Positions 4,264-41,291 of a DNA stretch of 64,000 bases are shown here, piece by piece (the stretch's first letter is position 1; the number at the start of each line of letters is the position of its first letter). A program made the position numbers and the translations under genes. The notes under the pieces were generated by a model, which had not been told where the DNA came from, ran no database searches, and was given only the letters and a program-made list of their open reading frames with translations. The DNA is from a virus. The stretch is from the IMG/VR virus record IMGVR_UViG_3300035670_010029; one strand, written 5' to 3'.

Positions 4264-4275
4264 GGGGCTTAATAA

Positions 4276-4963: not shown

Positions 4964-4974
4964 GAGAGGATAAA

Positions 4975-5352
4975 ATGAACTTTACAGAGAGTTTCAGTGA
5001 ATTTAGTAGTCGATTAGGGCCAACGGATTTAGCTCTATACGCTGGTGCTGGATTGGTATTATGGGTGTTGTTTAAGGATAAGCTTAGCCCAGTACAAAAG
5101 GTTGTTATAGATTTTGTTAATAAATTAAAGAACAAAACCCCAAAAGTTACACCAACCCCAATAGTTGCAACAGAACAGCCTCATGGTCAAAATGAGCCAA
5201 ATTTATTTTTTGATCTTGTAGTCTCTTGGAAGCAAACAAGAGATTTAGCAGAACGTAGCGGTTGCCAAAAGGCTGTTGAAGTGGCTGATCAAATGTTTCC
5301 GTATTTATCTCCTATGGTTTGTGATCAAAAGGTAGTATCAGATGAAAAATAA
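4975..5352 (+). CDS. Single-TM hypothetical protein
   Basis: LALYAGAGLVLWVLF helix; GAGG RBS. Confidence 0.7.
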   Translation: MNFTESFSEFSSRLGPTDLALYAGAGLVLWVLFKDKLSPVQKVVIDFVNKLKNKTPKVTPTPIVATEQPHGQNEPNLFFDLVVSWKQTRDLAERSGCQKAVEVADQMFPYLSPMVCDQKVVSDEK

Positions 5353-6768: not shown

Positions 6769-6775
6769 TACAGCA

Positions 6776-6784
6776 GGTGTATAG
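6776..6784 (+). promoter_or_regulatory. Candidate phage-specific promoter motif (GGTGTATAG)
   Basis: In the intergenic gap upstream of the structural gene at 6828. Confidence 0.5.
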
Positions 6785-6827
6785 AATACAGTAATGACTA
6801 AGCAAATACCACGAAAGGATATTAATA

Positions 6828-7661
6828 ATGGCTGATCGTAAAATATCTGAATTACCATTCGCACAAAAAGTATTCGATGGCGATTTACTCGTTGCTGTCA
6901 CAGGATACGGACAAAGAACTAACCCTAATGATATAAATAGCGACTACGTGTCTTATATCACCACTAAGATACCGGTTTCTGGTTTTATGGCTCATGCTGT
7001 TAGAGTTAATGAACTAGTAAATGGCGGTACCGGTATTATGGTTGTTCCAGATATTAATAATACTGATCCTAATAATGCCACACCTAACACAATTCAATTA
7101 AACGTTACTGGCGTGGCAATGAAAACACACTATCACACAGTATCAGACATTACCAACTTTGCATCCGGCGTAAGTGGACAAATACAACAAATTATCAGAT
7201 TCCAAACATCAGACCTAGCCTGCTTAGACAACTCAGATACCGAAAGTACTGATCTTAGAATACCTCTAGCTGCTAATTCTATGTATTTATGTGAACTAGG
7301 TACAATATTTGTAAATAATGAAACTGGTTCTGTTATTTCAGGGCTTATCAATGTCACCGGTGATATGAGTGTTAATTATCCAACTCAAATGTATGGAACA
7401 TGGAATAGACTTGGTTTTGACACCAATACTTATCCTTTACACAACTCTTCGGATAATGTTTCTGATTATGGAGTACTAGTAGATGCTTTAGATTCTACAC
7501 AAGTAAATAATCCATTAACCGTAGTCAATAAGTTTACTATTGAAACTACAAGCAATGAAGCAGATACTATCTCTTTTGTTTTTACAACCAATAGTACAAA
7601 CCCAGCAACATCTGGAGTACTCAAAAAGGGTAGTTGGCTCAAAGCAGAAAAAATTATCTAA
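6828..7661 (+). CDS. Putative virion/tail-fibre-type protein
   Basis: N-terminal MADRKISELP motif common in phage fibre proteins; HYHTVSDITNF motif; paralogous ends with the next ORF. Confidence 0.65.
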   Translation: MADRKISELPFAQKVFDGDLLVAVTGYGQRTNPNDINSDYVSYITTKIPVSGFMAHAVRVNELVNGGTGIMVVPDINNTDPNNATPNTIQLNVTGVAMKTHYHTVSDITNFASGVSGQIQQIIRFQTSDLACLDNSDTESTDLRIPLAANSMYLCELGTIFVNNETGSVISGLINVTGDMSVNYPTQMYGTWNRLGFDTNTYPLHNSSDNVSDYGVLVDALDSTQVNNPLTVVNKFTIETTSNEADTISFVFTTNSTNPATSGVLKKGSWLKAEKII

Positions 7662-22255: not shown

Positions 22256-24451
22256 ATGTCAGCTCTACAAGAATTACAGAATTATACCTTTGTTAGTAAG
22301 TATGCTCGCTGGATAGAATCAGAAAATCGTAGAGAGACATGGAAAGAAGCAGTAGAACGCGTCAAAGATATGATGCACACAAAGTATGCCGATTGCAATA
22401 TAACAGAAGATATAAATTGGGCATACGATATGATGTATAAGAAAAAAGTACTAGGAAGTCAACGAGCCTTGCAATTCGGGGGCGATCCTATATTAAAAAG
22501 AAATGCAAAAATTTATAATTGTACTGCTAGTTATTGTGATCGATTAAGATTTTTTCAAGAATGTTTTTGGTTATTATTATGTGGTAGTGGAACAGGGTTC
22601 AGCGTACAAAAACACCATGTTGCTAAATTACCAGCTCTTTCTCAAGAGCCAAAATCCGAAAACGGCAGAAAATATGTTATTGAAGATAGCATAGAAGGAT
22701 GGGCCGATGCTTTGGGTGTTTTATTAAGCTCATACTTTGTAAAACCAGCTGAAGATAAATTTAAGGAATATAAGGATCAATATGTGGTTTTCGATTATTC
22801 GAATATTAGACCCAAAGGTTCTCCTCTTACATCTGGTGTGGGTAAAGCCCCAGGATTTGAGCCTCTCCAAAATGGTCTCGAAAAAATACGAACTCTTCTT
22901 GATAGATGTGTAGCCAATGGACAAAAAAAACTTAGACCGATTGATGCTTACGATATTATTATGCACAGTAGCGATGCCGTGCTATCTGGTGGCGTTCGAA
23001 GGAGTGCGTCATTAGCATTATTTAGTGCCGATGACGAAGAGATGGCAAAAGCCAAGACAGGCAATTGGTATATAGAAAATCCACAAAGAGCAAGAAGCAA
23101 TAATTCGGCACTTTTGCTAAAAAGCGAAACAACATTCGAAGAGTTCCAAACACTGATGGAAAGTGTAAAAGAGTTTGGAGAACCAGGATTTATATGGAGC
23201 GATTCTACAGAAATGGTTTTTAATCCTTGTGTAGAAATTTCTTTGTGGCCAGTTAATGAAAAAAACGGAAAGTCAGGTTTTCAAGGCTGTAATCTATCAA
23301 CTATTAATTGTTCCTCCATAGTTGATGAAAACGATTTTTATGAACGATGCAAAGCAGCTGCATTGATAGGTACTCTACAAGCAGGATTTACTAGGCTAGA
23401 ATATCTGGGAAAAGATAGCGAGGAAATATTTGAAAGAGAAGCTTTGCTAGGTGTTTCGATGACAGGCATCATGGAAAAGCATGACCTAATATTAACCGAA
23501 AAAGTATTAAAGCAGGGTGCCAAAATTGCTGTCGAAACAAATAAAGAAATGGCCAAAAAAATAGGTATTAATCAGGCAGCAAGAGTAACGTGTCTCAAAC
23601 CAGAAGGCACTAGTAGTAGTATGCTTGGTACCAGCTCGGGCATTCATCCCCACCATGCTAAACGCTATATAAGACACGTACAGGCCAATGTTTTAGAGGC
23701 CCCATACCAACACTTTAAAAATTATAACCCGCAAGCCTGCGAGAGATCCTCATGGTCTGCAAACAATACAGATGAAGTTATAAAATTTCCAATAGAAGTT
23801 CCAGACGGGGCCAAATTAAAGAATCAATTACCAGCAGTTGAAATGTTGTCTATTGTCAAAGACACACAGAAAAATTGGGTCCATTCTGGTAAAAACCGAT
23901 CATTATGTACACAAGAGTATTTAAGCCATAATGTTAGCAATACTATTACAGTGAAACCAGACGAATGGGATGATGTCACAAAATACATTTATGATAACCG
24001 TAAATATTTTGCTGGCATTAGTCTTATTCCACAAAGCGGAGATAAGGATTATCCTCAAGCCCCTTTTACTACGGTTTATACCAGCAGAGAAATTGTAAAA
24101 GAATACGGAGATGCTGCTTTATGGTGCTCCGGACTAATAGAATTAGGCCTAAATGCTTTCAATAATAATTTATGGGCAGCATGTGACTATGTTAGTATGA
24201 ATCAGGCCAAAGAAGATGATAGCGAAGCTAAGCTTAAATTTACAACCAAAATGAAGAATTTTGCTGGAAAATATTTTGAAGGAGATGTTAGACGCTTGAC
24301 ATATTGCATGAAAGATGTTTATAATTGGAAGGTCTATTGTGATTTATACAATAGTTTCAAAAAGGTTGACTATACACAACTTCTAGAAACAGAAGATAAT
24401 ACCGCCGGTATTGAAGAAATTAGTTGCGCAGGAGGAGCTTGCTTACTGTGA
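22256..24451 (+). CDS. nrdJ: Class II (adenosylcobalamin-dependent) ribonucleotide reductase, monomeric RTPR type
   Basis: YNCTA, GGVRRSA, NPCVEI (thiyl Cys), GCNLSTIN, TCLKPEGTSS, C-terminal CAGGAC; no R2 subunit nearby. Confidence 0.92.
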   Translation: MSALQELQNYTFVSKYARWIESENRRETWKEAVERVKDMMHTKYADCNITEDINWAYDMMYKKKVLGSQRALQFGGDPILKRNAKIYNCTASYCDRLRFFQECFWLLLCGSGTGFSVQKHHVAKLPALSQEPKSENGRKYVIEDSIEGWADALGVLLSSYFVKPAEDKFKEYKDQYVVFDYSNIRPKGSPLTSGVGKAPGFEPLQNGLEKIRTLLDRCVANGQKKLRPIDAYDIIMHSSDAVLSGGVRRSASLALFSADDEEMAKAKTGNWYIENPQRARSNNSALLLKSETTFEEFQTLMESVKEFGEPGFIWSDSTEMVFNPCVEISLWPVNEKNGKSGFQGCNLSTINCSSIVDENDFYERCKAAALIGTLQAGFTRLEYLGKDSEEIFEREALLGVSMTGIMEKHDLILTEKVLKQGAKIAVETNKEMAKKIGINQAARVTCLKPEGTSSSMLGTSSGIHPHHAKRYIRHVQANVLEAPYQHFKNYNPQACERSSWSANNTDEVIKFPIEVPDGAKLKNQLPAVEMLSIVKDTQKNWVHSGKNRSLCTQEYLSHNVSNTITVKPDEWDDVTKYIYDNRKYFAGISLIPQSGDKDYPQAPFTTVYTSREIVKEYGDAALWCSGLIELGLNAFNNNLWAACDYVSMNQAKEDDSEAKLKFTTKMKNFAGKYFEGDVRRLTYCMKDVYNWKVYCDLYNSFKKVDYTQLLETEDNTAGIEEISCAGGACLL

Positions 24452-24972: not shown

Positions 24973-25695
24973 TTGAGAAAAAACACAAATAAAAATCAAA
25001 AGAAAACTAAAAATGCCAACAATCCTCCAGAAAATCAACCACAAGCTTATCTTAATACGTTAAAACCAAGATCGATTAATCAGCGAGACTATATTAGAAC
25101 CATAGTCGAAAATCACATCACGTTTTGTCAAGGTGTTGCTGGTTCAGGGAAGAGTCATATCGCTATAGGTATGGCTATTGCTTATCTGTTTGAGGGTAAA
25201 GTTGATAAAATTATTATTACAAGACCTGTGGTTGAGTCGGGAGAAAGATTAGGATATTTGCCGGGAACAGCAGAAGAAAAATTACATCCTTATTTACTGC
25301 CATTATTAGATGAAGTAAATCATTTTATTTCTAATGGGCAATATAATACTCTAAAAAGAAATAATAAAATAGAGATAGTTCCATTAGGACTAATGAGAGG
25401 ACGTAATTTTCATAAATGTTTTATTGTTGCAGACGAATGTCAGAATGCTTCGTATGATCAACTTAAAATGCTTTTAACCAGAATAGGACAAGATAGCAAA
25501 ATGGTTTTGACCGGAGATGTCAGTCAATCAGATTTGCATAGACATATGCAGGGAGGGTTCTATAATATTATGAAGGCCCTGTCTGATTTGTCTGGTGTTG
25601 GAGTCTCAGAACTCGACGCATCAGATATAGTAAGACATCCTATAATTGCAGAAATTATAAGACGATTAGAATTCTTCGAAAATAATGAAAAATGA
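24973..25695 (+). CDS. phoH: PhoH-family ATPase
   Basis: GVAGSGKS, ITRPVVE, LGYLPG, MRGRNF, DECQN, LTRIG, GDVSQSD, DIVRHP. Confidence 0.95.
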   Translation: MRKNTNKNQKKTKNANNPPENQPQAYLNTLKPRSINQRDYIRTIVENHITFCQGVAGSGKSHIAIGMAIAYLFEGKVDKIIITRPVVESGERLGYLPGTAEEKLHPYLLPLLDEVNHFISNGQYNTLKRNNKIEIVPLGLMRGRNFHKCFIVADECQNASYDQLKMLLTRIGQDSKMVLTGDVSQSDLHRHMQGGFYNIMKALSDLSGVGVSELDASDIVRHPIIAEIIRRLEFFENNEK

Positions 25696-26263
25696 AAATA
25701 GTCACTGTCTAGTCTTAAATGCAGATTTTTCTCCATTAAGTATTATTCATTGGAAAAGAGCTATTGTATGGTCATATAGATATGACAATCAACACCCATT
25801 GTCTATAGAAATTGTCGATTTTTATAAAGACGATTTCATTCATTGTGTTAATAAAAATATCCCAATACCGGCTGTAGTAAAGACTAAACAATATTTTAGA
25901 ATAAATAGCCACACGGTTAATTTTTCTCGCAAAAATTTATTTATTAGAGACAATTATAGTTGTCAGTATTGTGGCATTAAAAAAGATATTAAAGAATTAA
26001 CATATGATCATGTTATTCCTAAGTCTACATGGAATAATAATGGATCCCCCACATGCTGGACCAATATTGTAACCGCTTGCGTCAGCTGCAATAGAAAAAA
26101 GGGCAATAGAACACCCAAAGAAGCTAAAATGCCATTACAAAATTTACCAGTAGTACCTCGTAAGACACCAAAGTACTTGCCAATAGCCTCTATGTTACTT
26201 AAGATAAGACAAGACATACCATCAGAGTGGTCTATATATTTACCAAAGTCTTATTTAGCATAA
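25685..26263 (+). CDS. HNH endonuclease
   Basis: LVLNADFSPL, RDNYSCQYCG, TYDHVIPKS, NIVTACVSCNRKK. Confidence 0.9.
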   Translation: MKNENSHCLVLNADFSPLSIIHWKRAIVWSYRYDNQHPLSIEIVDFYKDDFIHCVNKNIPIPAVVKTKQYFRINSHTVNFSRKNLFIRDNYSCQYCGIKKDIKELTYDHVIPKSTWNNNGSPTCWTNIVTACVSCNRKKGNRTPKEAKMPLQNLPVVPRKTPKYLPIASMLLKIRQDIPSEWSIYLPKSYLA

Positions 26264-27764: not shown

Positions 27765-28187
27765 ATGCAGAAATATATTTCTCGCTATTCCAATAATAAA
27801 TTGGTATCTGCTGCACAGTATATCACTGAGTTAATATGTGAGCACAAAGCCAAAAAAGATAAAGAAGACTTACACTATAAATTTTGGGAACATAAAAAAT
27901 GGGCTGCTTTCTATAGAAATCAAATTGCTTCAGCGAATAAGTTATTAAAAACATACGATGCTAAAGCTATAATTGATGCTTTGAATAGTTCGTCAGCACA
28001 AAAAATATATTCGTTGCGAGCACCACACCTATTGCCTATGATAGAGCAAGCCCAATACAAAATACGGAATACCCCAAAACCAACAAAGCCAATCACCAAT
28101 ATAGATCGCAAAGCGTCTGTTAGTTTTAATAGAAAAAATCAAATCAATAAAAATATAGTTTCAAAATTAAAGGATCTAGAAGAATGA
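27765..28187 (+). CDS. Hypothetical protein
   Basis: 140-aa basic ORF translationally coupled to recA. Confidence 0.7.
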   Translation: MQKYISRYSNNKLVSAAQYITELICEHKAKKDKEDLHYKFWEHKKWAAFYRNQIASANKLLKTYDAKAIIDALNSSSAQKIYSLRAPHLLPMIEQAQYKIRNTPKPTKPITNIDRKASVSFNRKNQINKNIVSKLKDLEE

Positions 28188-29194
28188 GCCTCAAAGAAGA
28201 CGTTAAGAAAAATTTTGGTTCTGATATCATTTTGAGCGCTAACGCCATAGTTGATCGTGAAGTAGTCACCATCCCGGTGAGTCCTGCAATAGATATCGTA
28301 TTAAGTGGAGGTATACCAGAAGGTAGTTTTGTTATTTTAACAGGACAACCCAAATGCGGTAAAACCGTAACCTCCTTGCATTTTGCTGCCACAGCACAAA
28401 AACCTGAATACAAAGGCGATCTAAAAGAGCCTAGGGAAGTGTATTATCTAAATATTGAAGGTAGAATTAAAAAACGAGATCTAGAAGGTATTAAAGGATT
28501 AGATTTGGATAGATTTCATATTATTGGAAGTCAGCAAGGTAAAATTTTACATGCAGAAGAATATTTACAAATAGCTGAAAGAATTATTAATGAAGAGCCG
28601 GGCTCTGTATTGATTATTGATTCTTATTCAGCTTTGTGTACAGAAGCAGAAATTACCAGCGACATGGATAAAATGCAAAGAGCAGATGGAGCAAAATTAT
28701 TAGCTAAGTTTTGCCGAAAGGTGGCCAATGTTATACCTGTAAATAAAAATATTGTCATAGGCATTACTCATTTAATGGGTAATCCGGGTTATGGTAATGT
28801 TGAATGGAAAGAAAAGTCTGGACAAGCCATAGCATATCAAACAGATATTAAGCTTAAAGCCAAAATGTTCGGTCCGTGGAAAAGCAGTGCAGACGGACCT
28901 CAAATAGGACAAGAAGTCGATTGGCTAGTTATGTGTTCAGCCTTGGGGCCACCGGGAGGAACAATTAAAAGCTTTATTAGATATGGCGAAGGTATAGATC
29001 AAACTATGGAATTAATCACTCTTTGCATAGACCTAGGTATTATACAGAAGGGCGGCGCTTGGTATACGCTGGCAAATGTTGAAGATAAGCCAAAATTCCA
29101 AGGAACGGAAAAGCTTAGACAATATGTTTGCGACAATCCAGCCGTCTACGATATGTTGTATCAAGAACTTAAACAAACCATGGGGATCAAATGA
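28184..29194 (+). CDS. recA: RecA/UvsX-like recombinase
   Basis: IDIVLSGGIPEG, Walker A GQPKCGKT, IIDSYSAL, YGEGID, GIIQKGGAWY. Confidence 0.92.
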   Translation: MSLKEDVKKNFGSDIILSANAIVDREVVTIPVSPAIDIVLSGGIPEGSFVILTGQPKCGKTVTSLHFAATAQKPEYKGDLKEPREVYYLNIEGRIKKRDLEGIKGLDLDRFHIIGSQQGKILHAEEYLQIAERIINEEPGSVLIIDSYSALCTEAEITSDMDKMQRADGAKLLAKFCRKVANVIPVNKNIVIGITHLMGNPGYGNVEWKEKSGQAIAYQTDIKLKAKMFGPWKSSADGPQIGQEVDWLVMCSALGPPGGTIKSFIRYGEGIDQTMELITLCIDLGIIQKGGAWYTLANVEDKPKFQGTEKLRQYVCDNPAVYDMLYQELKQTMGIK

Positions 29195-30478: not shown

Positions 30479-31945
30479 ATGATTCTTTCTGACCCATCAG
30501 CTGAAAGAGCTGTATTAGCTGGTATATGTAAGTATGGTGAAGATGCTTACTTAGATATTGCGGATATTATTCAGGATAGTACTTTTACTATTGATAGTAA
30601 TAGTATTATATACAAATGTCTTAAAAATATTTTTGAAAAGAATGCGAATATATCTATAGATATAGCTGCAATTTTTTCTACAGCAGAAGAACTTAATCTA
30701 AGTCATATAGTGTCAAAAAAAGAAGAGGTCCAACACCTAAAAGCTATTTTTGACTTTCCTGTTAATCTAGACAATGTTAGAAAGTTTGCTGCTAAAATTC
30801 GTAAGCTAGAAATAGCTAGGCTTTTACGTAAGCAGCTAGAAAATGCTCAAGATAAAATTTTAGACGTTACAGGCAATGAAACTATTGGATCGATTATTAG
30901 CATTGCTGAAGATACCATTTTTGACTTTACTTCTCTCTTGAACGATACAGATAGTAATCCTGCGTCAATAGGGGACGATATAGAAGAATATATAGAGTAT
31001 TTGTCTACTAATAAAGTTGATCAAGTTGGTATTCCTACTGGTTTTCCAGTATATGATCAAGCTATAGGGGGAGGGCTAAGGAAAAGCACTATCAATGTTA
31101 TAGCGGCTCGACCAAAAGTAGGCAAAACCCTACTATCTGACAATATGGGTTTTCATATAGCTAATAAGCTACAAATACCAGTATTAAATATGGATACTGA
31201 AATGACCAAAGAAGATCATATTAACAGAGTACTAGCAATGATGACCGAGATAGAAATCTCGAACATAGAAACAGGTAAATTTACACAAACACCAAATCAA
31301 CAAACAAAAATACAAGAAGCCGTTCAACAATTGAAGAATACAAAACTATATTATAAATCTATTGCTGGTAAATCATTTGAGGACCAATTGTCTATTATGA
31401 GAAGATGGTTAGTCAAAGAAGTAGGACTCAATGATGATGGAACAGCAAAAGACTGTGTTATTTTTTATGATTATTTGAAACTAATGGATAGTGCCGGAAT
31501 TAGCCAAGACCTAAAAGAATATCAGGTTTTGGGATTCATGATGACATCCCTGCATAACTTTGCAACAAGATACAAGGTTCCTGTGGTTGCATTTGTACAG
31601 CTGAATAGAGACGGTATTACTAAAGAAAGTACAGATACTGCTAGTGGTTCCGACAGAATTATTTGGCTTTGTAGTAACTTCAGTATTTTCAAAAGAAAAA
31701 CTCCTGAAGAAATCTCTGAAGACGGACCTGAGAACGGCAATAGAAAACTTGTGCCTTTGATCTCAAGACATGGAGGTGGATTAGACGATAATGACTATAT
31801 TAACTGCCACATGAAGGGTTGGTGTGCTAAAATTACAGAAGGTAAAACCAGAATAGAAATCTCTCGCGGCGCTAAACAACAAAACGATGGCTTTATTGTA
31901 GACTCTGAATATGATAACAATGAACAAACAATCCCGTTTGAATGA
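30479..31945 (+). CDS. dnaB: DnaB-like replicative helicase
   Basis: AERAVLAG, GIPTGF, AARPKVGKT, DTEM, DYLKLM, VQLNR. Confidence 0.93.
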   Translation: MILSDPSAERAVLAGICKYGEDAYLDIADIIQDSTFTIDSNSIIYKCLKNIFEKNANISIDIAAIFSTAEELNLSHIVSKKEEVQHLKAIFDFPVNLDNVRKFAAKIRKLEIARLLRKQLENAQDKILDVTGNETIGSIISIAEDTIFDFTSLLNDTDSNPASIGDDIEEYIEYLSTNKVDQVGIPTGFPVYDQAIGGGLRKSTINVIAARPKVGKTLLSDNMGFHIANKLQIPVLNMDTEMTKEDHINRVLAMMTEIEISNIETGKFTQTPNQQTKIQEAVQQLKNTKLYYKSIAGKSFEDQLSIMRRWLVKEVGLNDDGTAKDCVIFYDYLKLMDSAGISQDLKEYQVLGFMMTSLHNFATRYKVPVVAFVQLNRDGITKESTDTASGSDRIIWLCSNFSIFKRKTPEEISEDGPENGNRKLVPLISRHGGGLDDNDYINCHMKGWCAKITEGKTRIEISRGAKQQNDGFIVDSEYDNNEQTIPFE

Positions 31946-33071
31946 TCAAGCTAAACTCAAAGTTGTATGTGATCAACTGTGTGATAATATTGAAGACCTT
32001 TTGGGGTCTTTGGATATACAATACAAGAATGGTCCCAAAATGGTGTCCATGAGTTGTCCTATTCATGGAGGAGATAATATAGGAGCATTGAACCTATATA
32101 CTCAGGGAGACTCCTATAGAGGCAACTGGAAATGTCGCACACATGGATGTGAAAAAGTTTTCAAAAGCTCTATCATAGGGTTTATTAGGGGTGTCATGTC
32201 TCATCGTAAGCACGGATGGGAAAAAGATGGAGATAAAACATGTTCTTTCAAAGAAGCTGTTAATTATGCTACTTCTTTTTTAAAGGCAGACCTCAATGAT
32301 ATCAAAATATCTAAATTATCAAGAAATAAGCAATCGTTCACAACTGCTGTTCAATATATTGGAAATAATAAACCAATAATAACACCCACAGGAGGAATAT
32401 CTAGGGCAATAGTACGTAAGTCTTTGGATATACCGGCGGAATACTATTTAAATAGAGGGTATTCAGAAGATATACTTAATAAGTATGATATAGGATTTTG
32501 TAATAATCCCAAAAAAGAAATGTATAATAGGGTAGTAGCACCCATATATGATGATAATCATGAATATCTGATCGGATGTACAGGAAGAAGCATATTCGAA
32601 AAATGTGCCCATTGTAGTTGTTATCACGATCAAAACAATAGTTGTCCAGATAAAGAAAAACGATGGCTTTATCCTAAATGGAAACATAGCTCCAACTTTA
32701 AAAGTCAGAATACTCTATATAACTACTGGTATGCAAAAGATTTTATATCTAAGCTTGGGTATGTTATTATCGTTGAAGGTCCAGGGAATGTTTGGAGATT
32801 AGAAGAAAATCATATTCATAACAGTGTAGCCATATTCGGTTCTTCAATGAGTGATAGACAAAAAATTATTTTGGACTCTTCAGGAGCAATGACTATAATA
32901 GTCTTAACAGATAATGATGATGCTGGCAGGCAAGCAGCAGAACAAATTAAGGCTAAATGCCATAAAACATACAGAGTATTTATTCCAACTATCACAGCAT
33001 CAGATGTTGGAGACATGACGCAAGAACAAATATCTACAGAAATAGTAGGATACATAGAAAGCAAAATATGA
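31911..33071 (+). CDS. DNA primase (zinc finger + TOPRIM)
   Basis: CPIH...CRTHGC zinc finger; IVEGPGN and LTDNDDAG TOPRIM motifs; extra CAHCSCYH...C insert; start may be 31920. Confidence 0.9.
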   Translation: MITMNKQSRLNDQAKLKVVCDQLCDNIEDLLGSLDIQYKNGPKMVSMSCPIHGGDNIGALNLYTQGDSYRGNWKCRTHGCEKVFKSSIIGFIRGVMSHRKHGWEKDGDKTCSFKEAVNYATSFLKADLNDIKISKLSRNKQSFTTAVQYIGNNKPIITPTGGISRAIVRKSLDIPAEYYLNRGYSEDILNKYDIGFCNNPKKEMYNRVVAPIYDDNHEYLIGCTGRSIFEKCAHCSCYHDQNNSCPDKEKRWLYPKWKHSSNFKSQNTLYNYWYAKDFISKLGYVIIVEGPGNVWRLEENHIHNSVAIFGSSMSDRQKIILDSSGAMTIIVLTDNDDAGRQAAEQIKAKCHKTYRVFIPTITASDVGDMTQEQISTEIVGYIESKI

Positions 33072-33658
33072 ATACAATCATTGCTTTTGCCGGAAGAAAA
33101 CAGTCTGGTAAAACCACATGTGCTGAAGCTATTATTAGACATATAAATCAAACATCTCTCAAAGACAGTATTAAACTATACAATTTTGCTGATCCTCTCA
33201 AACAAGATGTCTGTATTAATATACTGGGATTAACATATAATCAGTGTTATGGTACTGACGAAGAAAAAAATCAACCAACAGATCTTGTGTGGAATAAACA
33301 AAGATTATCGGCTAGGGAAGTTATGCAATTTGTTGGAACTGACATTTTTCGCAAAATGAAACCCAATGTTTGGGCGGATGCCACTGTTACTAAAATAAAA
33401 ACAGAAAACCATGATTATGCTGTTATAGCAGACTGTCGGTTTCCAAATGAGGTTGAGGCCATAAAAAATGCTGGTGGTACTGTTATAAAACTAACACGAA
33501 ACCCACATAATTCTGATCATATTAGTGAAACAGCTTTGGATCCAACAAATTATAATCCTTCAAATTTTGATTACGTGCTAGACAATGTTAATTTGTCTAT
33601 AGATGATCAAAACTTTCTGGCTATACAATACCTAAAAACCATTAAAGTCTTACCATGA
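33068..33658 (+). CDS. Deoxynucleoside monophosphate kinase (T4 gp1-like)
   Basis: AGRKQSGKTT, FADPLK, REVMQFVGTD, DCRFPNE, HISE. Confidence 0.9.
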   Translation: MNTIIAFAGRKQSGKTTCAEAIIRHINQTSLKDSIKLYNFADPLKQDVCINILGLTYNQCYGTDEEKNQPTDLVWNKQRLSAREVMQFVGTDIFRKMKPNVWADATVTKIKTENHDYAVIADCRFPNEVEAIKNAGGTVIKLTRNPHNSDHISETALDPTNYNPSNFDYVLDNVNLSIDDQNFLAIQYLKTIKVLP

Positions 33659-34698
33659 TTATTGCTTATCTGCGTAGTTCTAGCTATAATACCCATTCTA
33701 TGTGTGAAATGCAATATTTTTTAGAGTATGTATTAGGCAACAGGTCTCCTTCCGGGAAAAAGGCTGATAAAGGCACAATATGCCATAAGGCATTAGAAAT
33801 ATTAGCTTTTATCAAACTTAACCAACAAAATAATAACGAAACATTTGAAGATGATATAATAGGATTAGTAAACGTTAATACCTACAATTTGGATACTATT
33901 ATAGACCAAGTATACAAACACTATACATCACAATTTACACATCACATATGGGAGACTAGGGACTACAAGGATTGTCATAGCTGGATTTATAAAGCAATTA
34001 ATTATAATGATGGTATGTTCGACCCAAGAAACCACCATATAGTTCAGCCCGAACAACATTTTGATATAGAAATTAAGAGGCCGTGGTCTGCATATAAATA
34101 TGATACTCCAGACGGTGTTATGTCGGGCCATCTGGCAATTAAAGGAACCATAGATCTAATCACAAAGGTTAATGATAACACACTAGAAATCATAGACTAT
34201 AAAACAGGAAGAAGACTGGATTGGGCAACAGGACAAGAAAAAACTCCAGAAAAACTACAAAATGATCCTCAGTTAAGAATATATCATTATGCAATTCAGC
34301 ATCTGTATCCGGATATAGATCATGTTATTGTATCGATTAATTTTATTAACGATGGAGGTATGTTTTCGATCTGTTTTGACAAGTCAGATCTATATCAAAC
34401 AGAAATGATGCTAAAACAAAAATTTGAAACTATCAAAAACACACAAATACCTAGACTTAATAAGACCTGGAAATGTACTAAATTATGTCATTTCGGCAAA
34501 AGCACGTTTGAAAATACCAATATTCTGCCCATTATAGAATACAGAGATAACCAAGTCACACCCAACGGTCAATTTATGACAAAATGTGAGCAAGTCCATC
34601 ACGATATTTCTCTAAAAGGCGTTAAAACAGTCATTGACGAATACACTCGCCCAGGTTATACTGTGGGTCAGTACAAGGCACCAGGAAGCGTAGAATGA
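33655..34698 (+). CDS. PD-(D/E)XK exonuclease (RecB/AddB/Cas4-like, probable Fe-S cysteines)
   Basis: SSSYN...C, GTICHKALE, KGTIDL, IDYKTG, QLRIY, CTKLCH...C. Confidence 0.85.
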   Translation: MIIAYLRSSSYNTHSMCEMQYFLEYVLGNRSPSGKKADKGTICHKALEILAFIKLNQQNNNETFEDDIIGLVNVNTYNLDTIIDQVYKHYTSQFTHHIWETRDYKDCHSWIYKAINYNDGMFDPRNHHIVQPEQHFDIEIKRPWSAYKYDTPDGVMSGHLAIKGTIDLITKVNDNTLEIIDYKTGRRLDWATGQEKTPEKLQNDPQLRIYHYAIQHLYPDIDHVIVSINFINDGGMFSICFDKSDLYQTEMMLKQKFETIKNTQIPRLNKTWKCTKLCHFGKSTFENTNILPIIEYRDNQVTPNGQFMTKCEQVHHDISLKGVKTVIDEYTRPGYTVGQYKAPGSVE

Positions 34699-36566
34699 AC
34701 TATATACCACTTCACTGTCATTCCATGTTTTCTCTTTTGGACGGACTCTCAAAACCTGAACAAATGGCTGATAGGTGCAAAGAGATAGGAGCAACAGCAT
34801 GTGCCATCACGGATCACGGAAACATAGCTGGAGCGGTTAAGTTTTATCTCGCTATGAAAAAGGCCGGAATTAAACCAATTTTGGGTTGCGAATTATATAT
34901 TTGCAAAGAACACCCCTCTATTAAAACCAAAGAGAACAAAAAACTAAGTCATTTTATAGTTTTAGCCCAAAATTATCAAGGATGGAAGGATCTAATCAAA
35001 CTTGTTTCAGAATCAAATAGACCCGAATTTTATTATCATAAACCTAGACTCGATATAAAAACTCTATCGGTCATATCTCATAGTAATTTTATTGGTATAA
35101 CAGGACATCTTGGTTCAACACTTGCTGACCTTATCATAGAACAAGATCAGCTTGTCGATAACTGGGAAAAAATCGGAATAGAGCATATAAATACTTTAAA
35201 GTCTATCTTTGATGATAGATTATTTTTAGAAGCACAATTGATGGACCAAGACAATTTGCCTGTACAAAAAGTATTAACAGACGCCATTAGAAAACTTGGT
35301 AAAAAGACATCAACCAAAGTTATTTGTACCCCAGATGCCCATTACTGCAACAAAGAAGACGCTGTTGATCAAAGGGTTTTATTATGTAACAATCTGAAAA
35401 CGACTTTTTCTGAGGTCAACTCTAAACTTATCAATAATGAAGACATAGCCATGGGTTGTTTTTTTTATTCCGACAATTACCACATTCTTTCTCAAGAAGA
35501 AATGTCGGCACTACACGAACCTATAGAGATAGAAAATACTAACTATGTTGCTAATCTTATCGAAGATTATGATATTATCAGTAAGCCAAGATTGCCTCCT
35601 TTTAAATGTCCTAATAATATGGACGACGCAGAGTATCTTAGGGAACTATGTCGCCAAGGATGGAAAAAGAAAATAGCTAATGTTATTCCAAAAGAAGAAC
35701 ATCAAAAATATGTAGACAGAATTAAATATGAATTAGATGTTTTGCAGGGTGCTGATCTTAGTAGTTATTTTTTGATAGTGCAGGATATCGTTAATTATGT
35801 TAGAGATAACGGGTGGTTGCCTGGACCCGGCAGAGGTAGTGCTGCTGGGTGTCTTGTTTCTTATTTGATTGGTATTACTAACATAGACCCCATACAGTAT
35901 AATCTATTGTTTGACAGATTTTACAATTCTGGTAGAAATTCTGCTGACCATATCTCAATGCCCGATATTGATGTAGACGTTCCGATCAATAAAAGAGAAC
36001 AAATTATACAATATATCAAAGATAAATATGGACAAGATAAAGTTTCTCAAATGGTTACATTCAATACCATCAAAGGTAGAGGGTCATTAAAAGATGTTCT
36101 AAGAGTATATGGCAACATATCATTTGATGAAATGAACCAAATCACTAAAAATATTCCAGACGAAGCCAAGATAGCAGACGAGCTTCAAGAAATGAAGGAA
36201 GAAACAGGAGAATCATCAATCGTTAGATGGGCATTAGAAAACCAGCCAGATAAGCTAAAAGAATGGTGTTATGTAGACGATAACAACGAAATACAAGGAC
36301 CACTTGCAAAAAGATTCGAACAGGCTATAAGATTAGAAGGAGTAAAATCCAATCAATCCAAACACGCTGCCGGTATTGCTATTTCAGCAGAGCCTTTATC
36401 TGATGTGTGTCCTATGGTTTATGATGCTAAAAACGACCAGCTTATTGCCGGAATGGAAATGCAAGACCTCGAAGCTATAGGGGTTATTAAATTTGATATA
36501 TTGGGTATAGCATATTTAGATAAAATCATGTGTATCTCAGACCTATTAAAAAATAAGGAGAGTTAA
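34695..36566 (+). CDS. dnaE: DNA polymerase III alpha, N-terminal half (PHP + palm + thumb)
   Basis: HCHSMFSLLDG, TDHGN, GCE, DAHY, GPGRGSAAG, MPDIDVD, HAAG, KFDILG; ends about 19 residues after the last palm motif. Confidence 0.95.
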   Translation: MNYIPLHCHSMFSLLDGLSKPEQMADRCKEIGATACAITDHGNIAGAVKFYLAMKKAGIKPILGCELYICKEHPSIKTKENKKLSHFIVLAQNYQGWKDLIKLVSESNRPEFYYHKPRLDIKTLSVISHSNFIGITGHLGSTLADLIIEQDQLVDNWEKIGIEHINTLKSIFDDRLFLEAQLMDQDNLPVQKVLTDAIRKLGKKTSTKVICTPDAHYCNKEDAVDQRVLLCNNLKTTFSEVNSKLINNEDIAMGCFFYSDNYHILSQEEMSALHEPIEIENTNYVANLIEDYDIISKPRLPPFKCPNNMDDAEYLRELCRQGWKKKIANVIPKEEHQKYVDRIKYELDVLQGADLSSYFLIVQDIVNYVRDNGWLPGPGRGSAAGCLVSYLIGITNIDPIQYNLLFDRFYNSGRNSADHISMPDIDVDVPINKREQIIQYIKDKYGQDKVSQMVTFNTIKGRGSLKDVLRVYGNISFDEMNQITKNIPDEAKIADELQEMKEETGESSIVRWALENQPDKLKEWCYVDDNNEIQGPLAKRFEQAIRLEGVKSNQSKHAAGIAISAEPLSDVCPMVYDAKNDQLIAGMEMQDLEAIGVIKFDILGIAYLDKIMCISDLLKNKES

Positions 36567-36571
36567 AATAT

Positions 36572-36754
36572 ATGTCAATTAAAAAATTTTTTGATATACC
36601 AGTAGGAACCACTTTTACTCTTAATAATGTTGAATACGTAAAAGTTACAGAAGATAGAATTTCGTGCTGCAAGGTTTTGAATGCAGAAACCGTAACAGAA
36701 CCCAAAACTAAGATTCAGGTTATCCCTATTACAGAAGTTGAAGTTAAAGACTAA
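36572..36754 (+). CDS. Small beta-rich hypothetical protein between the dnaE halves
   Basis: 60 aa; AAGGAG RBS; TAATG coupling to the next gene. Confidence 0.7.
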   Translation: MSIKKFFDIPVGTTFTLNNVEYVKVTEDRISCCKVLNAETVTEPKTKIQVIPITEVEVKD

Positions 36755-37443
36755 TGATTAATTACAACAAAATTTGTGTTTTCGATTTTGAAACCGACGG
36801 GTCTAATCCTTTTGAGTGTAGTCCAGTGCAACTTGCTGCTATTATGATAGATCCGATTAAGCTGGATATTGTTCCTAACTCTGATTTTAATATTTACTTC
36901 AAGCCAGAAGTTTTAGAAAAAGATGACAATTACCAGTATACTACAGACATATTAGATTTTCATGCGAAGGTAAAAGGATCATCAAAAGATGATATTCTGC
37001 AAGAATGGAAAAAATATCCGTCTCAGGAACATTCCTGGTCAATGTTTGTTAATTACTTAGAGAAGTATCATACCAGAGCATCTAAAAAAAGCCAGTTTTC
37101 TGCACCTATAGCTTCTGGTTACAATATATATCGATTTGATTTACATATTATAGATCGTCTCAGCAAAAAATATGGAAACACCAACAAAGAAGACAGAACA
37201 AATCTGTTCTATCCAAGAGATGTTGTTGATATTATGAATTTAATATTCTATTGGTTTGAAAATAATAATGACCTTAAAAATTATACTCTTGATTCTTTAA
37301 GAGAATATTTTGGAATTTCAAAAGAAGGAGCACACGATGCAGCTAAGGATATACAAGACAGCGCAGAAATCTTGATAAGATTCTTGAGACTCCACCGAAA
37401 TTTGTCACAAAAAATTAAGTTTAAAAACGCTTTTGCTTCATAA
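36754..37443 (+). CDS. dnaQ: DEDDh 3'-5' exonuclease (DnaQ/epsilon-like)
   Basis: VFDFETDG (ExoI), GYNIYRFD (ExoII), AHDAAKD (ExoIII). Confidence 0.88.
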   Translation: MINYNKICVFDFETDGSNPFECSPVQLAAIMIDPIKLDIVPNSDFNIYFKPEVLEKDDNYQYTTDILDFHAKVKGSSKDDILQEWKKYPSQEHSWSMFVNYLEKYHTRASKKSQFSAPIASGYNIYRFDLHIIDRLSKKYGNTNKEDRTNLFYPRDVVDIMNLIFYWFENNNDLKNYTLDSLREYFGISKEGAHDAAKDIQDSAEILIRFLRLHRNLSQKIKFKNAFAS

Positions 37444-37445
37444 TA

Positions 37446-39089
37446 ATGATATCTACACAGAATCCCAATAAAAAAAAGAAACTACAATATTCTTGCGGTT
37501 GTTCTTTCAACACCATAGATAATGACTCGGATAAAATAGACTTTGATCCTGTTCATAACCCTATCAATTTTAATTGCTCCAAAACCTGGGCACTTATAGG
37601 AGATGGTAATACTAAGGGTTGTTTTCAGCTTGAGTCTAGATTAGGTAGATCTATGGCTAAAAAACTTAAGCCAACAAACATAGAAGAGCTATCTGCCCTA
37701 ATCAGTATTCTGAGACCAGGATGCTTGGAAGCCGTAAGAGACGGAAAAACTGTGTCCAACCACTACATAGATAAAAAAAATGGCCAGGAATCTATAGACT
37801 ATTATCATCCAGCACTAGAGGAAACACTTGGCAAAACCTATGGAGAGATGATATATCAAGAACAGGCAATGGAGATTGCAAAAAATATAGCTGGTTTTAA
37901 TCTACAAGAAGCAGACATGCTTCGTAAAGCTATTGGTAAAAAGAAACCAGAAGAAATGGCAAAAGTAAAATCTAAGTTTTTGAATGGGTCCAAAGAACTG
38001 GGTGTCGTTTCCTTTGAACAAGCAGAAGAAATTTTCGGATGGATAGAAAAAAGCCAAAGATATTCTTTTAACAAAAGTCATGCTGTTTCCTACGCTGTTA
38101 ATGCTTATCTGTCTGCTTACGCAAAAGCTCATTTTCCTAGGATATTTTTTGCTTCGTACCTAAGATTTGCGAAAGATAAAATTGATCCTAAGGCAGAAAT
38201 TAAAGAACTGATACAAAACGCTAACGCAATGGATATAGGCGTCTATGTGCCAGACATTAGAAATATGAATAAATTTTTTGTTCTCAAAAATAACCATATT
38301 TATTTTGGTCTCACAGATATCAAAGGGTTCGGCGATTCGGTATATAACAAACTATGTGAACTTATAAAAAAAGAACATATAGATTTTGATACTGTGTCTT
38401 GGTTAGAATTTGCATGTAAAATTTTATTGAATATTAATTCTATATCAGCTAAATCATTAATCAAGTCTGGTTCATTGTCTTTTCTAAAGAAAAGCAGAAC
38501 ATCAATGCTTTTCGAATATGAACTATTGGGGAAATTAACCAAAAAAGAAAGCGGTTTTATTTGTGATAGAGCGGATCGATATAAAAATTTAAACGACGCA
38601 TTGCTGGATTTATTCCATAATCATAGACTAACTAATAAAAGAAGCCAGACCATTAATACTATTATACAAACCTTTAATAAGCCCCCGTATTCTCTTCAGG
38701 ACAGCCCGGAATGGATAGCCGACTCAGAAGAAGAAATACTGGGCTGCAGCATCACTTGCTCTAAAGTAGATATGTATGATATTTCTATGACTAATGCAAC
38801 ATGCAAAGACTTTCATAATATGTTAAATACTGATAATATTATTGTGTGTGGAGAAATAGACACTATCAGTATCATTAAAACAAAATCAGGCAAAAATCCT
38901 GGTGCGGAAATGGCCTTTGTTTCGATGAGCGACGGATCAGGAGTGATAGACAGCGTTATTTTCTTTCCAGAGGCTTACAAAGAATTTCGAAACATTCTTT
39001 TTCAGAACAATGTTATTATTGTCAAAGGGAACAAAACAAAGAGCAAGGATGGACTCGTTGTCCAAAAAGCCTATATTCCTAGAACTTGA
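37446..39089 (+). CDS. dnaE: DNA polymerase III alpha, C-terminal half (fingers + HhH + OB)
   Basis: GCFQLES, LRPG, TYGEMIYQEQAM, ADMLRKAIGKK, YSFNKSHAVSYA, FGLTDIKGFG, MAFVSMSDGSG...VIFFPEAY. Confidence 0.95.
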   Translation: MISTQNPNKKKKLQYSCGCSFNTIDNDSDKIDFDPVHNPINFNCSKTWALIGDGNTKGCFQLESRLGRSMAKKLKPTNIEELSALISILRPGCLEAVRDGKTVSNHYIDKKNGQESIDYYHPALEETLGKTYGEMIYQEQAMEIAKNIAGFNLQEADMLRKAIGKKKPEEMAKVKSKFLNGSKELGVVSFEQAEEIFGWIEKSQRYSFNKSHAVSYAVNAYLSAYAKAHFPRIFFASYLRFAKDKIDPKAEIKELIQNANAMDIGVYVPDIRNMNKFFVLKNNHIYFGLTDIKGFGDSVYNKLCELIKKEHIDFDTVSWLEFACKILLNINSISAKSLIKSGSLSFLKKSRTSMLFEYELLGKLTKKESGFICDRADRYKNLNDALLDLFHNHRLTNKRSQTINTIIQTFNKPPYSLQDSPEWIADSEEEILGCSITCSKVDMYDISMTNATCKDFHNMLNTDNIIVCGEIDTISIIKTKSGKNPGAEMAFVSMSDGSGVIDSVIFFPEAYKEFRNILFQNNVIIVKGNKTKSKDGLVVQKAYIPRT

Positions 39090-39113
39090 CACAATGGAAC
39101 GACGACATATGAT
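39086..39113 (+). promoter_or_regulatory. Sigma-70-type promoter for ssb
   Basis: TTGACA (39086-39091), 16-nt spacer, TATGAT (39108-39113). Confidence 0.6.
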
Positions 39114-39161
39114 AGAATATGTTTGGTTTTTGGATTTTTCTTTACAAGGAGATTTAAACAA

Positions 39162-39548
39162 ATGAATATTAATATTCTGCGCGGTAATTTAGCTAGAGAT
39201 CCTGAAGTACGTGTTGTGACTATTAATGGTAAGCAAACTTCTGTAGTAAACTTTACTGTAGCAGTCTCTCGTGAATATACTAAGGCAAATGGAGAAAAGG
39301 ATAAGGTTACCACATTCGTGCCATGTGAAGCATGGGATAGTGGTGCTGAGATAATAGGGGACTCCTTTAGAAAGGGAGACCTAGTAATGGTAGAAGGTTC
39401 GCTACGAAACGACTCTTGGGAAAAGGATGGCGTTAAGCATAATTCTTTGAAAGTCCGAGTTAATAACTTTTCAAAGATTACCAAGCTCTCAAGAAATCGT
39501 ACAGACAAAAGTCTAGACAAGAGCGAAGCTGAAACGGTTGCTTTTTAA
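39162..39548 (+). CDS. ssb: Single-stranded DNA-binding protein
   Basis: LRGNLARDPE, VNFTVAV, CEAW, KGDLVMVEGSL; ATG 39162 after AGGAG. Confidence 0.93.
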   Translation: MNINILRGNLARDPEVRVVTINGKQTSVVNFTVAVSREYTKANGEKDKVTTFVPCEAWDSGAEIIGDSFRKGDLVMVEGSLRNDSWEKDGVKHNSLKVRVNNFSKITKLSRNRTDKSLDKSEAETVAF

Positions 39549-39575
39549 TTATCATCAGAGCATAGGACAATAGAT

Positions 39576-39608
39576 GAAATGGGGGGTGTTTAGTCGCCCC
39601 CCAATTTC
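39576..39608 (+). terminator. GC-rich stem-loop after ssb (terminator or processing hairpin)
   Basis: gaaat-ggggggtg-tttagt-cgcccccc-a-atttc; weak U tail. Confidence 0.6.
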
Positions 39609-39623
39609 TACGCAAATAAAGAC

Positions 39624-41291
39624 ATGACACAAAACAAAAAACTCAAAATATTGATGGTTTCTGAGGCTAGCTTTTTAAGCTCTGGATTCGGAACTTATGC
39701 TAAAGAAATTCTAAGTCGTCTTCATGCCACCAACAAATATGAGATCGCAGAATTTGCTTGCTACGGCAAGGTTAATGATCCTAAAGACCATTCTATTTTG
39801 TGGAGATATTATGCTAATGCTGTAGACGAAAATGATCCAAGACATAAAGAGTATAACAATTCTTTAGAAAATCAATTTGGTAGATGGAGATTTGAGAGAG
39901 TTTTATTGGATTTTCAGCCAGATGTTGTTGTAGATGTTAGAGATTACTGGATGAATTCATATCAGCAATTCTCTCCTTTACGACCATTTTTTCACTGGGT
40001 TCTTATGCCCACAGTAGACTCTTCGCCTCAACAAGAAGACTGGATTGACACATTTTTACATGCAGATGCTATTTTTACTTATTCAGACTTTGGTCGTGAC
40101 ACTCTCTTAGAGCAAAGCAACAACAAAATTAATTACATATCTACAACGTCTCCGGGTGTTGATCTTAATATTTTTCATCCAATCCCTAACAGAGATAATC
40201 TTAGACAATCTCTGGGTATTGCTCCGGGCAGTTTTGTGATTGGATCAGTTATGCGTAACCAAAAACGCAAATTAATTCCCGAGCTATTTTCTGCTGTTAA
40301 GTCTCTTATCAATAATCTTTATCAGCAAAATAATGATTTGGCTAACAATATTTACATATACTTGCATACTAGTTATCCAGATGCGGGTTGGGATATACCA
40401 CAGTTACTAAAAGAATATGAGATAGGAAACAGGGTTTTATTCACATACTCATGTAAAAGTTGTGGATTTTTCAGACCAAAACTCTTTAGTCATCCTGTAA
40501 CATATTGTCCTAAGTGTGGCAATAGGTCTCTTTCTATGCCAAATGTTAGTAATGGACTACAACAAGAAAATCTCAATCAAGTTATTAACTGCTTCGATTT
40601 ATATGTACAATATGCCATATGTGAAGGATTTGGTATGCCACAGGTTGAAGCAGCAGCAGCGGGGGTACCCATAGCATCAGTAGATTATAGTGCAATGTCT
40701 GATGTTGTTAGAAAACTTAATGGATACCCAGTTAGAGTTAATCAATATTTTAAAGAACTTGAAACCAAAGCAATACGCGTTTATCCAGATAATAAGCACC
40801 TTCAGCAAATCATTACCGACTTCATTTCTTTGCCTGATATCCTGAAACAACAAAAAAGACATGAAACCAGAAAATTAACAGAGGAGCACTATAACTGGGA
40901 TAACATAGCTAAACAATGGGAAAATTATTTTGATCATATTACGCTCAGTGGTATGCAAGGCAAGTGGTCATCGAATCTTCCATTAATGAACAATATTAAT
41001 AATTTAGATGGAGACAATGCTTACGACATCATAACCTCGGCTGTTTCAACACATATGCCCCAACACCAGATCATAAGCTCAATGTCTCTGTTAAATATGC
41101 TCAAAGATACAGATTACGGATTTACTCTTAATGGCTTACAAATTCAGCCATACGGACTAGAGCAGGTAAAGAACTCGCTAAACGTAATGATCAACAATCA
41201 TAATACTGCCATACAGGCAAAAAATAATCTTGGATCACTCTCTCCAGAAGACTATATTTCTTACGCACACATGAAAGATAACACTAAATGA
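39624..41291 (+). CDS. Glycosyltransferase family 4 (GT-B) with zinc-ribbon insertion
   Basis: KILMVSE...SGFG, RNQKRK, EGFGMPQVEAAAAGVP (E-x7-E), YNWD; CKSCG...CPKCG insert. Confidence 0.9.
   Translation: MTQNKKLKILMVSEASFLSSGFGTYAKEILSRLHATNKYEIAEFACYGKVNDPKDHSILWRYYANAVDENDPRHKEYNNSLENQFGRWRFERVLLDFQPDVVVDVRDYWMNSYQQFSPLRPFFHWVLMPTVDSSPQQEDWIDTFLHADAIFTYSDFGRDTLLEQSNNKINYISTTSPGVDLNIFHPIPNRDNLRQSLGIAPGSFVIGSVMRNQKRKLIPELFSAVKSLINNLYQQNNDLANNIYIYLHTSYPDAGWDIPQLLKEYEIGNRVLFTYSCKSCGFFRPKLFSHPVTYCPKCGNRSLSMPNVSNGLQQENLNQVINCFDLYVQYAICEGFGMPQVEAAAAGVPIASVDYSAMSDVVRKLNGYPVRVNQYFKELETKAIRVYPDNKHLQQIITDFISLPDILKQQKRHETRKLTEEHYNWDNIAKQWENYFDHITLSGMQGKWSSNLPLMNNINNLDGDNAYDIITSAVSTHMPQHQIISSMSLLNMLKDTDYGFTLNGLQIQPYGLEQVKNSLNVMINNHNTAIQAKNNLGSLSPEDYISYAHMKDNTK

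Follow-up and report, generated by a model that had tools for sequence, protein, structure and literature searches.

The 64,000-nt window considered here, meaning the whole stretch of DNA that was analyzed (IMG/VR record IMGVR_UViG_3300035670_010029), comes from an uncultured aquatic jumbo phage and contains, at positions 34695-39089 of the + strand, four closely packed open reading frames (ORFs) in the order DnaE-N, a 60-aa ORF, an exonuclease and DnaE-C (Table 1), in which the alpha subunit of a DnaE-type, family-C DNA polymerase III (Pol III) is divided between the first gene and the last. The phage has no close cultured relative, since a DNA-level search against 50,697 GenBank phages found nothing similar to the window sequence and the top protein identity among GenBank phages is 34%. 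The stop codon of DnaE-N (36564-36566) is separated from the start of DnaE-C (37446) by 879 nt, and the two genes in between are joined to each other and to the polymerase genes by junctions of 5 nt (DnaE-N/60-aa gene), a 1-nt overlap (TAATG, 60-aa gene/exonuclease) and 2 nt (exonuclease/DnaE-C). No + strand terminator was found at these junctions, and the AAGGAG within the end of DnaE-N may serve the translational coupling of the 60-aa gene.

DnaE-N aligns with residues 7-625 of Taq alpha and 6-568 of Escherichia coli alpha, and matches the Pfam families PHP (4.9e-37, residues 6-181, uninterrupted) and DNA_pol3_alpha (PF07733, 3.5e-75), the latter complete at positions 1-260 of 260. Its three catalytic Asp residues, D424, D426 and D601, are invariant across 83 sequences, the GRGS and KH residues of the palm are invariant or nearly so (K210 differs in three of the 83), and the C-terminus falls 19 residues past the KFDILG motif. 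All nine positions of the PHP metal site are intact (H7, H9, D16, H41, E66, H86, H138, D214 and H216), with H138 standing where Cys is usual. These positions are conserved in the 83 sequences, H7 and H9 being invariant in the 71 that have a matching N-terminus, and in the sequences that deviate at these two residues the start codon was probably mis-called. A small clade of N-halves, represented by P0148 (762 aa) with its relatives P0107, P0129 and P0149, bears C-terminal extensions, and in P0148 a YpsA (SLOG) domain in circularly permuted form is fused behind the palm.

DnaE-C continues the alignment over residues 648-947 of Taq alpha and 592-853 of E. coli alpha, with Pfam matches to DNA_pol3_finger (PF17657, 5.4e-46, positions 23-164 of 166), HHH_6 (PF14579) and the OB fold (PF01336). 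The motifs FQLES, RPG, YQEQ, LRKAIGKKK and YSFNKSH are all present with invariant key residues, YSFNKSH being unbroken at residues 206-212, and the AlphaFold2 single-chain model has a mean predicted local distance difference test score (pLDDT) of 86.9. About the first 30 residues are without equivalent in contiguous enzymes, and the N-terminal arm (residues 1-40) has the motif F.Y.CGC.F, in which C17, G18, C19 and F21 are each at least 90% conserved, as is C44 further on, and AlphaFold2 models residues 12-23 of this arm as a beta-hairpin. The arm is not present in five of the six contiguous relatives, these being the ones with a readable junction (the FQLES anchor is missing in P0030). A zinc site shared by the CGC of the arm and the CC of the 60-aa protein was considered and set aside because the two features do not strictly co-occur: loci L032-L050 carry the arm without the 60-aa gene and L027 carries the 60-aa gene without the arm.

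The two halves are complementary on full-length DnaE profiles, with neither loss nor overlap. On TIGR00594 DnaE-N covers positions 1-575 and DnaE-C positions 575-1022, and on phrog_405 they cover 42-616 and 622-1077, respectively. The break corresponds to about residues 569-591 of E. coli alpha and 626-647 of Taq alpha, which places it in the loop behind the first fingers helix, and to describe it as lying between palm and fingers is accurate to ~20 residues. The profiles of the cyanobacterial split DnaE (NF007079 and NF005616) put their break at about residue 207/208 of DnaE-C, ~208 residues downstream of this cut. The initial annotation had described the N-half as PHP, palm and thumb with all three Asp residues and a stop about 19 residues after KFDILG, had given the spacing of the three junctions and of the 879-nt gap, and had pointed to a new N-terminal arm on DnaE-C and to an intact YSFNKSH, unlike the cyanobacterial break; the spacings are exact in the ORF coordinates, and Pfam, profiles and alignments agree with the rest.

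The exonuclease has the DEDDh residues D11, E13, D129, H194 and D199, which are kept in 81 sequences with a single gap at D11. It matches Pfam RNase_T (1.5e-12) and phrog_192, a "DNA polymerase exonuclease subunit" (5e-19), and scores 21-23 bits against the NCBIfam epsilon models, which is below their cut-offs of 186-236. The 60-aa protein preceding it belongs to a family in which F15, C32 and C33 are invariant (43-sequence alignment), and is modelled by AlphaFold2 as a five-strand SH3/KOW/Tudor-like beta-barrel (mean pLDDT 94.4). Fold searches with this model gave weak, generic matches to SH3, KOW, Tudor and EF-P domain I (Foldseek E >= 0.04, VIA Z <= 5.4), sequence searches of Pfam, PHROG and NCBIfam gave no match, and the ESM Atlas returned viral hypothetical clusters only. 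The gene is absent or replaced in a more distant marine clade (loci L032-L050), and hence its product is not in the invariant core of the system but, judged by this distribution, is an accessory; an unrelated 72-aa ORF occupies its position in L031. Within the marine clade, L032 (9862-9990) has a 37-aa micro-ORF of the CxxC...CxxC zinc-ribbon-like type at this place, and L039, L049 and L050 have no ORF there at all.

The helicase, primase, kinase and nuclease genes upstream of DnaE-N point the same way as the DnaE genes, and this synteny is kept in more than 100 loci. Their positions are given in Table 1, together with those of the DnaE genes and of other genes further upstream.

Table 1. Features of the split DnaE locus and its surroundings (positions in the 64,000-nt window)
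Feature	Position	Strand	Remarks
Ribonucleotide reductase gene	22256-24451		Further upstream
PhoH-like protein	24973-25695		
HNH endonuclease	25685-26263		Directly after the PhoH-like protein
UvsX-like recombinase gene	28184-29194		
DnaB-like helicase	30479-31945	+	ORF; DnaB Pfam family on the syntenic gene of L132
Primase	31911-33071	+	ORF; primase Pfam family on the syntenic gene of L132
dNMP kinase	33068-33658	+	Pfam DNMK
PD-(D/E)XK nuclease	33655-34698	+	Pfam PDDEXK_1; stop overlaps DnaE-N start
DnaE-N	34695-36566	+	623 aa; PHP, palm, thumb, first fingers helix
Shine-Dalgarno-like AAGGAG	36555-36560	+	In the last DnaE-N codons, 11 nt before the 60-aa ATG; from sequence
60-aa microprotein gene	36572-36754	+	SH3/KOW/Tudor-like barrel by model
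DEDDh 3'-5' exonuclease	36754-37443	+	229 aa; Pfam RNase_T
DnaE-C	37446-39089	+	547 aa; remaining fingers, helix-hairpin-helix, OB fold
N-terminal arm of DnaE-C	37446-37565	+	Residues 1-40; alignments and model
Promoter-like site before the SSB gene	39086-39113		Best of the region, 11/12 positions matching
SSB gene	39123-39548	+	Directly downstream of DnaE-C; Pfam SSB 7e-24

This arrangement is widespread. Scans of IMG/VR yielded 130 loci, among which are 84 distinct N/C combinations with the order N-exonuclease-C, and in these 84 viral contigs (40-100% identity) the genes follow one another as dNMP kinase, PD-(D/E)XK nuclease, N, (small ORF), exonuclease, C and SSB. The N-halves have 606-665 aa (mostly ~620-630) and the C-halves 516-550 aa, the exonuclease/C junction is mostly -1, -4 or -8 nt, and pairwise identities over the 84 loci range from minima of ~45% (N), ~33% (exonuclease) and ~40% (C) up to 100%. 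When 1.84 billion cluster representatives were searched with HMMER, ~139 of the best 150 clusters at 50% identity were N-halves with the same end point, some of them intein-bearing, and six were contiguous DnaE; as these best 150 reach down to E ~1e-126 only, the split family, which occurs in freshwater, marine and subsurface phages, must be larger still. In addition, all of the junctions are spanned with 96-100% identity by Logan contigs, which come from two freshwater studies and from another sample of the probable source study and, together with the 84 contigs, demonstrate that the arrangement is due neither to chance nor to an assembly artefact.

The Ka/Ks ratios, which leave out the near-identical pair L012/L013 because its Ks is near zero, are 0.013-0.062 for N, 0.005-0.049 for the exonuclease, 0.012-0.064 for C and 0.02-0.32 for the 60-aa gene, and indicate that N, exonuclease and C are under strong purifying selection. 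Moreover, the pairwise identities of N, exonuclease and C co-vary over the 84 loci (r 0.94-0.97, Mantel p 0.001), and the exonuclease is thus co-inherited with the polymerase halves rather than being an independently moving insert. The initial annotation had named conserved synteny and breakpoint as a check on the split, and assembly chimerism or the decay of one half as reasons to doubt it. The arrangement is kept in 84 contigs and the end point of N in ~139 of the best 150 clusters, the junctions are also spanned in contigs of independent samples and studies, and neither half is decaying, with Ka/Ks of 0.01-0.06 in both and invariant catalytic residues.

Insights into the history of the split come from its contiguous relatives. 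The sister uncultured phages P0008/L131, P0030/L132 and P0065/L133 have a contiguous DnaE in the same module synteny, and their exonuclease gene lies far downstream (L131), upstream past one gene (L132) or immediately upstream (L133). In trees of the N-region rooted with DnaE of Gram-positive bacteria and gut phages (FastTree, and IQ-TREE on 48 rows), the aquatic clade has a support of 100, every early branch is split and contiguous forms sit inside the clade at two or three points, which means that either re-fusion or repeated splitting took place. A single clade of all split rows is rejected by the approximately unbiased (AU) test (delta lnL 131, p 0.0046), which used the model LG+G4 and a group that was named only after the tree had been seen. 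Given that the break is residue-identical in all split forms and that the exonuclease is co-inherited, the simplest reading would be a split that probably had a single origin, at the base of the aquatic clade, and was followed by at least two re-fusions, after which the exonuclease gene is found elsewhere; splitting on several occasions is the alternative. The cultured Rossellomorea phage phiT1 (PV767480.1; L135:2989-6271; 52.8 kb) has a cut in the same loop, and its pieces are gp20 (573 aa), gp19 (49 aa) and gp18 (469 aa) with no exonuclease between them. Its relatives, the Bacillus phages 056SW001B and PK-1, have one contiguous DnaE gene and the phiT1 split is hence apparently independent. 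The palm-fingers loop appears to be a permissive cut site.

The failure of the split rows to form one clade (AU p 0.0046) and the independent cut in phiT1 are what would be expected if the exonuclease, with or without the 60-aa gene, were a mobile cassette that has repeatedly inserted at a permissive or targeted site in dnaE, the contiguous genes being those that were never invaded. This is very unlikely, however, as the exonuclease has diverged in step with N and C (r 0.94-0.96), the contiguous relatives keep an orthologous exonuclease elsewhere in the module, no flanking direct repeats were found at the junctions and no endonuclease domain in the four ORFs, and the early-branching lineages are all split at a residue-identical position.

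Whether the split enzyme is the only polymerase of such phages was examined in four relatives rated 100% complete (G001-G004, which contain the loci L012, L055, L071 and L062; 192-231 kb, two with terminal repeats), and these contain no family A or B polymerase and one DnaE palm each. It is conceivable that the halves no longer constitute a polymerase and have acquired other roles, N as a PHP nuclease or phosphoesterase and C as a DNA-binding factor, with the host Pol III replicating the phage, and that no phage clamp or clamp loader is recognised in the complete relatives would fit with this. Such a loss of function is highly improbable, as 83 sequences show no variation in the three Asp residues, in the residues with which palm and fingers bind dNTP or in the helix-hairpin-helix and OB modules, the two halves do not differ in their low Ka/Ks, N and C co-diverge with r 0.97, and the genes stand in a helicase-primase-SSB module with no other polymerase in the complete relatives.

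Several lines of evidence bear on whether the halves could be spliced. No Hint, intein or homing-endonuclease domain was found in the four ORFs (Pfam at E <= 0.01, PHROG and NCBIfam), and an Rfam scan of positions 33500-40000 gave nothing at E <= 1. The 83 aligned N-halves all stop at one place after the helix MLDKIMTIxDLL, with a tail of 0-5 residues past the homologous helix that leaves no room for an N-intein of ~100 residues, and because the final residues of the N-halves vary, as do the initial residues of the C-halves, there is no conserved splice nucleophile. As a positive control, the same searches detected contiguous inteins in the N half of the relatives P0010 and P0052, and, within the N half of L088, a split intein together with an endonuclease ORF. 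The claims of the initial annotation that no intein motifs are visible and that there is no space for an intron core, the intergenic spaces being 5, -1 and 2 nt, therefore hold in a setting where inteins of relatives were readily found. In L088 the fractured gene (4044-7120) consists of PHP, part of the palm and an N-intein (471 aa), a 264-aa endonuclease-like ORF with weak matches to Phage_endo_I/TnsA, and a C-intein followed by the rest of N, and the intein-free cut ahead of the fingers is retained in addition. The polymerase gene of L088-type phages is, from these assignments, in three pieces, with one joint intein-mediated and the other intein-free. A fractured N half is also seen in L098 and L099, and at other sites in L122 and L073.

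Unrelated genes can also intervene between the parts. In L023 (10060-12435) and L024 (8507-11095) the exonuclease is separated from DnaE-N, or from the 60-aa gene, by an inserted RCC1-repeat gene (792 or 863 aa). The exonuclease is separated from DnaE-C by five genes (3.6 kb) in L102 (4361-7853), which include an FkbM methyltransferase, ThyX and a DUF1559 pilin-like protein with an N-terminal pilin-type methylation motif, and by 2.6 kb and 1.0 kb in L112 and L114, respectively. Such insertions fit independent genes rather than splicing, and no splicing model survives them. It is thus extremely unlikely that the halves are joined covalently by an unrecognised route, be it non-Hint protein ligation, RNA trans-splicing or an 879-nt ribosomal bypass: N and C do share a reading frame in the window (37446-34695 = 2751 = 3 x 917), and inteins are common elsewhere in this gene family so that the lineage has been exposed to splicing elements, but the common frame is not kept in relatives (the offset in L002 is not a multiple of 3), there is neither a Hint domain, an Rfam intron nor conservation of the junction residues, and the gap is occupied by two conserved and selected genes, with up to 3.6 kb of unrelated genes between the parts in relatives.

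It is likely, in our view, that the replicative polymerase of this phage is a DnaE-type Pol III alpha in two polypeptides that work as a non-covalent assembly, which is the most likely state of two proteins that have nothing to splice them and for which the intein-free split family-B polymerases gp43A/B and PhiKZ DNAP-N/C would, by analogy, provide a precedent. DnaE-N would supply PHP, palm, thumb and the entire three-Asp active site, and DnaE-C the fingers, the helix-hairpin-helix domain that binds the duplex and the OB fold. Both halves, the exonuclease and, in this clade, the 60-aa protein would be translated from one operon message, where the abutting or overlapping stops and starts would favour coupled translation and balanced amounts of the products. 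N and C would then associate non-covalently through the native palm-fingers interface, perhaps assisted by the conserved CGC beta-hairpin arm of DnaE-C, and the exonuclease would join them as an epsilon-like proofreader. What we infer from sequence is the physical assembly with its stoichiometry and activity, and likewise what the arm, the exonuclease and the 60-aa protein do in it. Hence the non-covalent replicase of three to four subunits that the initial annotation envisaged stands as regards the separate polypeptides and the lack of a splicing element, and is narrowed as regards the 60-aa protein, which falls outside the invariant core.

Some observations weigh against a two-chain replicase of this kind. 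The arm is not present in the split loci L031, L024 and L027 and, with the 60-aa gene missing in the marine clade, neither the arm nor the 60-aa protein can be essential for assembly. The exonuclease has only ~30 residues after its last motif, and would be a candidate proofreading subunit with a distant resemblance to epsilon and without the long C-terminal tail of the epsilon type. The intact PHP metal site may itself proofread, either alone or beside the DEDDh exonuclease. Finally, the Pfam clamp (PF02768) and clamp-loader (PF13177) families have no match in the four complete relatives, where divergent versions could escape such a search.

A two-chain assembly could also be more than the result of a tolerated cut. 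The break may be a functional design in which the joint of palm and fingers houses the proofreader, accompanied in most lineages by the 60-aa barrel, and the CGC arm acts as a clasp. Such a design would also be reversible in evolution, with at least two re-fusions. We regard this as doubtful. If true, it would be the non-covalent counterpart of the exonuclease inserted in PolC, and would perhaps permit the exchange or regulation of the fingers or the proofreader.

All bacteria replicate their DNA with family-C polymerases, and studies of these enzymes have dealt with single alpha chains or with chains that inteins rejoin. An enzyme in which the palm with the active site is on one chain and the fingers, which bind dNTP and template, are on another would mean that the palm-fingers connection is dispensable, and would provide a natural system for studying the movement of the fingers and the recruitment of the proofreader, as well as a source of split points and assembly elements from nature that engineers could use. 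With contiguous genes nested among the split ones, real data are available for testing how the gene of an essential enzyme is broken and re-fused. In annotation, N and C halves of this type should not be labelled as pseudogenes or fragments.

The contiguous DnaE enzymes (Taq, 2HPI/3E0D; E. coli, 2HNH/5FKU; and those of the sister phages) have the same order of PHP, palm, thumb, fingers, helix-hairpin-helix and OB fold and the same catalytic residues as the two halves combined, and with the sister phages the N-half shares 42-53% identity as well as the synteny of the replication module. The difference is that the chain described here comes from two genes with an exonuclease gene between them, the cut falling ~20 residues into the fingers, and that the C-half has acquired the CGC arm. 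The hallmarks of family C, PHP with a three-Asp palm followed by fingers, helix-hairpin-helix and OB fold, are therefore all found, but on two chains rather than one. In PolC of the Firmicutes a DEDDh exonuclease is likewise encoded within the polymerase region, where it is a domain inserted in the PHP of one chain. Here the PHP is uninterrupted, and the exonuclease is a separate gene, placed between palm and fingers only in the order of the genes.

Other DnaE genes in pieces are known. The cyanobacterial split DnaE (dnaE-n/dnaE-c, Ssp/Npu) and the metagenomic "fractured" DnaE loci contain split inteins (Dassa et al., 2009; PMC2677866). Like the former, the polymerase described here is a family-C enzyme from two genes and, like the latter, it has an ORF between the halves. 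However, the cyanobacterial type breaks at Y/CFNKSH, a site that is intact here and not accompanied by split-intein fragments, and the middle ORF of fractured genes is a homing endonuclease, in contrast to the co-inherited DEDDh exonuclease with no Hint domain nearby. Genes interrupted by group I or II introns have a structured RNA between the exons, whereas here the spaces of 5, -1 and 2 nt have no Rfam match. A split DnaE was also noted in the Microbacterium phages of cluster EF, such as Ajin (genes 61-63) (Jacobs-Sera et al., 2020; PMC7302621). In Ajin (PP978814.1; L140:3501-6998) the cut is at the PHP/palm border, and a 63-aa ORF separates the resulting pieces of 344 aa and 751 aa. Cluster EF and phiT1 both share with this locus a two-piece DnaE with a small ORF in between and no annotated intein. 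The group 2.2 T4-like jumbo phages have a PHP-less "minimal split Pol III alpha" beside PolB (Iyer et al., 2021; PMC7824862). That version is a minimal catalytic core at distant loci, unlike the PHP-bearing form in one operon described here, which is the only polymerase in the complete relatives. The papers cited describe no biochemical test of the split DnaE of cluster EF, phiT1 or group 2.2, and fragmented DnaE genes of bacteria have been taken as likely errors (Timinskas et al.; PMC3919608).

Biochemical precedents for intein-free splits are found in family B. The gp43A and gp43B pieces of Aeromonas phages 25 and 44RR form such a polymerase, and those of phage 25 are reported to co-purify and to show activity (Petrov, Ratnayaka and Karam, 2010, as cited in PMC2988022), while PhiKZ DNAP-N and DNAP-C form a stable, active and intein-free 1:1 complex that was solved at 2.1 A (Basu et al., 2026; PMC13648687). 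Like these systems, the locus encodes a probable phage replicative polymerase in two separately translated, intein-free pieces. Both of the known enzymes are cut inside the palm and have the exonuclease as a domain of the N piece, in contrast to the separate exonuclease gene of this family-C locus, and the two polymerase genes of PhiKZ are far apart, unlike the operon found here. A literature search found no description of a palm/fingers cut in DnaE that encloses an exonuclease gene. What is new is that contiguous forms are nested among the split ones, as examined by the AU test, that phiT1 is cut in the same loop, that the arm has a modelled hairpin and the microprotein a modelled fold, and that the family itself contains a split-intein control. 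The initial annotation saw in this locus an architecture different from both DnaE plus epsilon and PolC. The distinction from PolC is upheld; with respect to the former, and with intein-free split polymerases already known, the arrangement is best seen as a DnaE with an epsilon-like exonuclease in which alpha comes in two chains.

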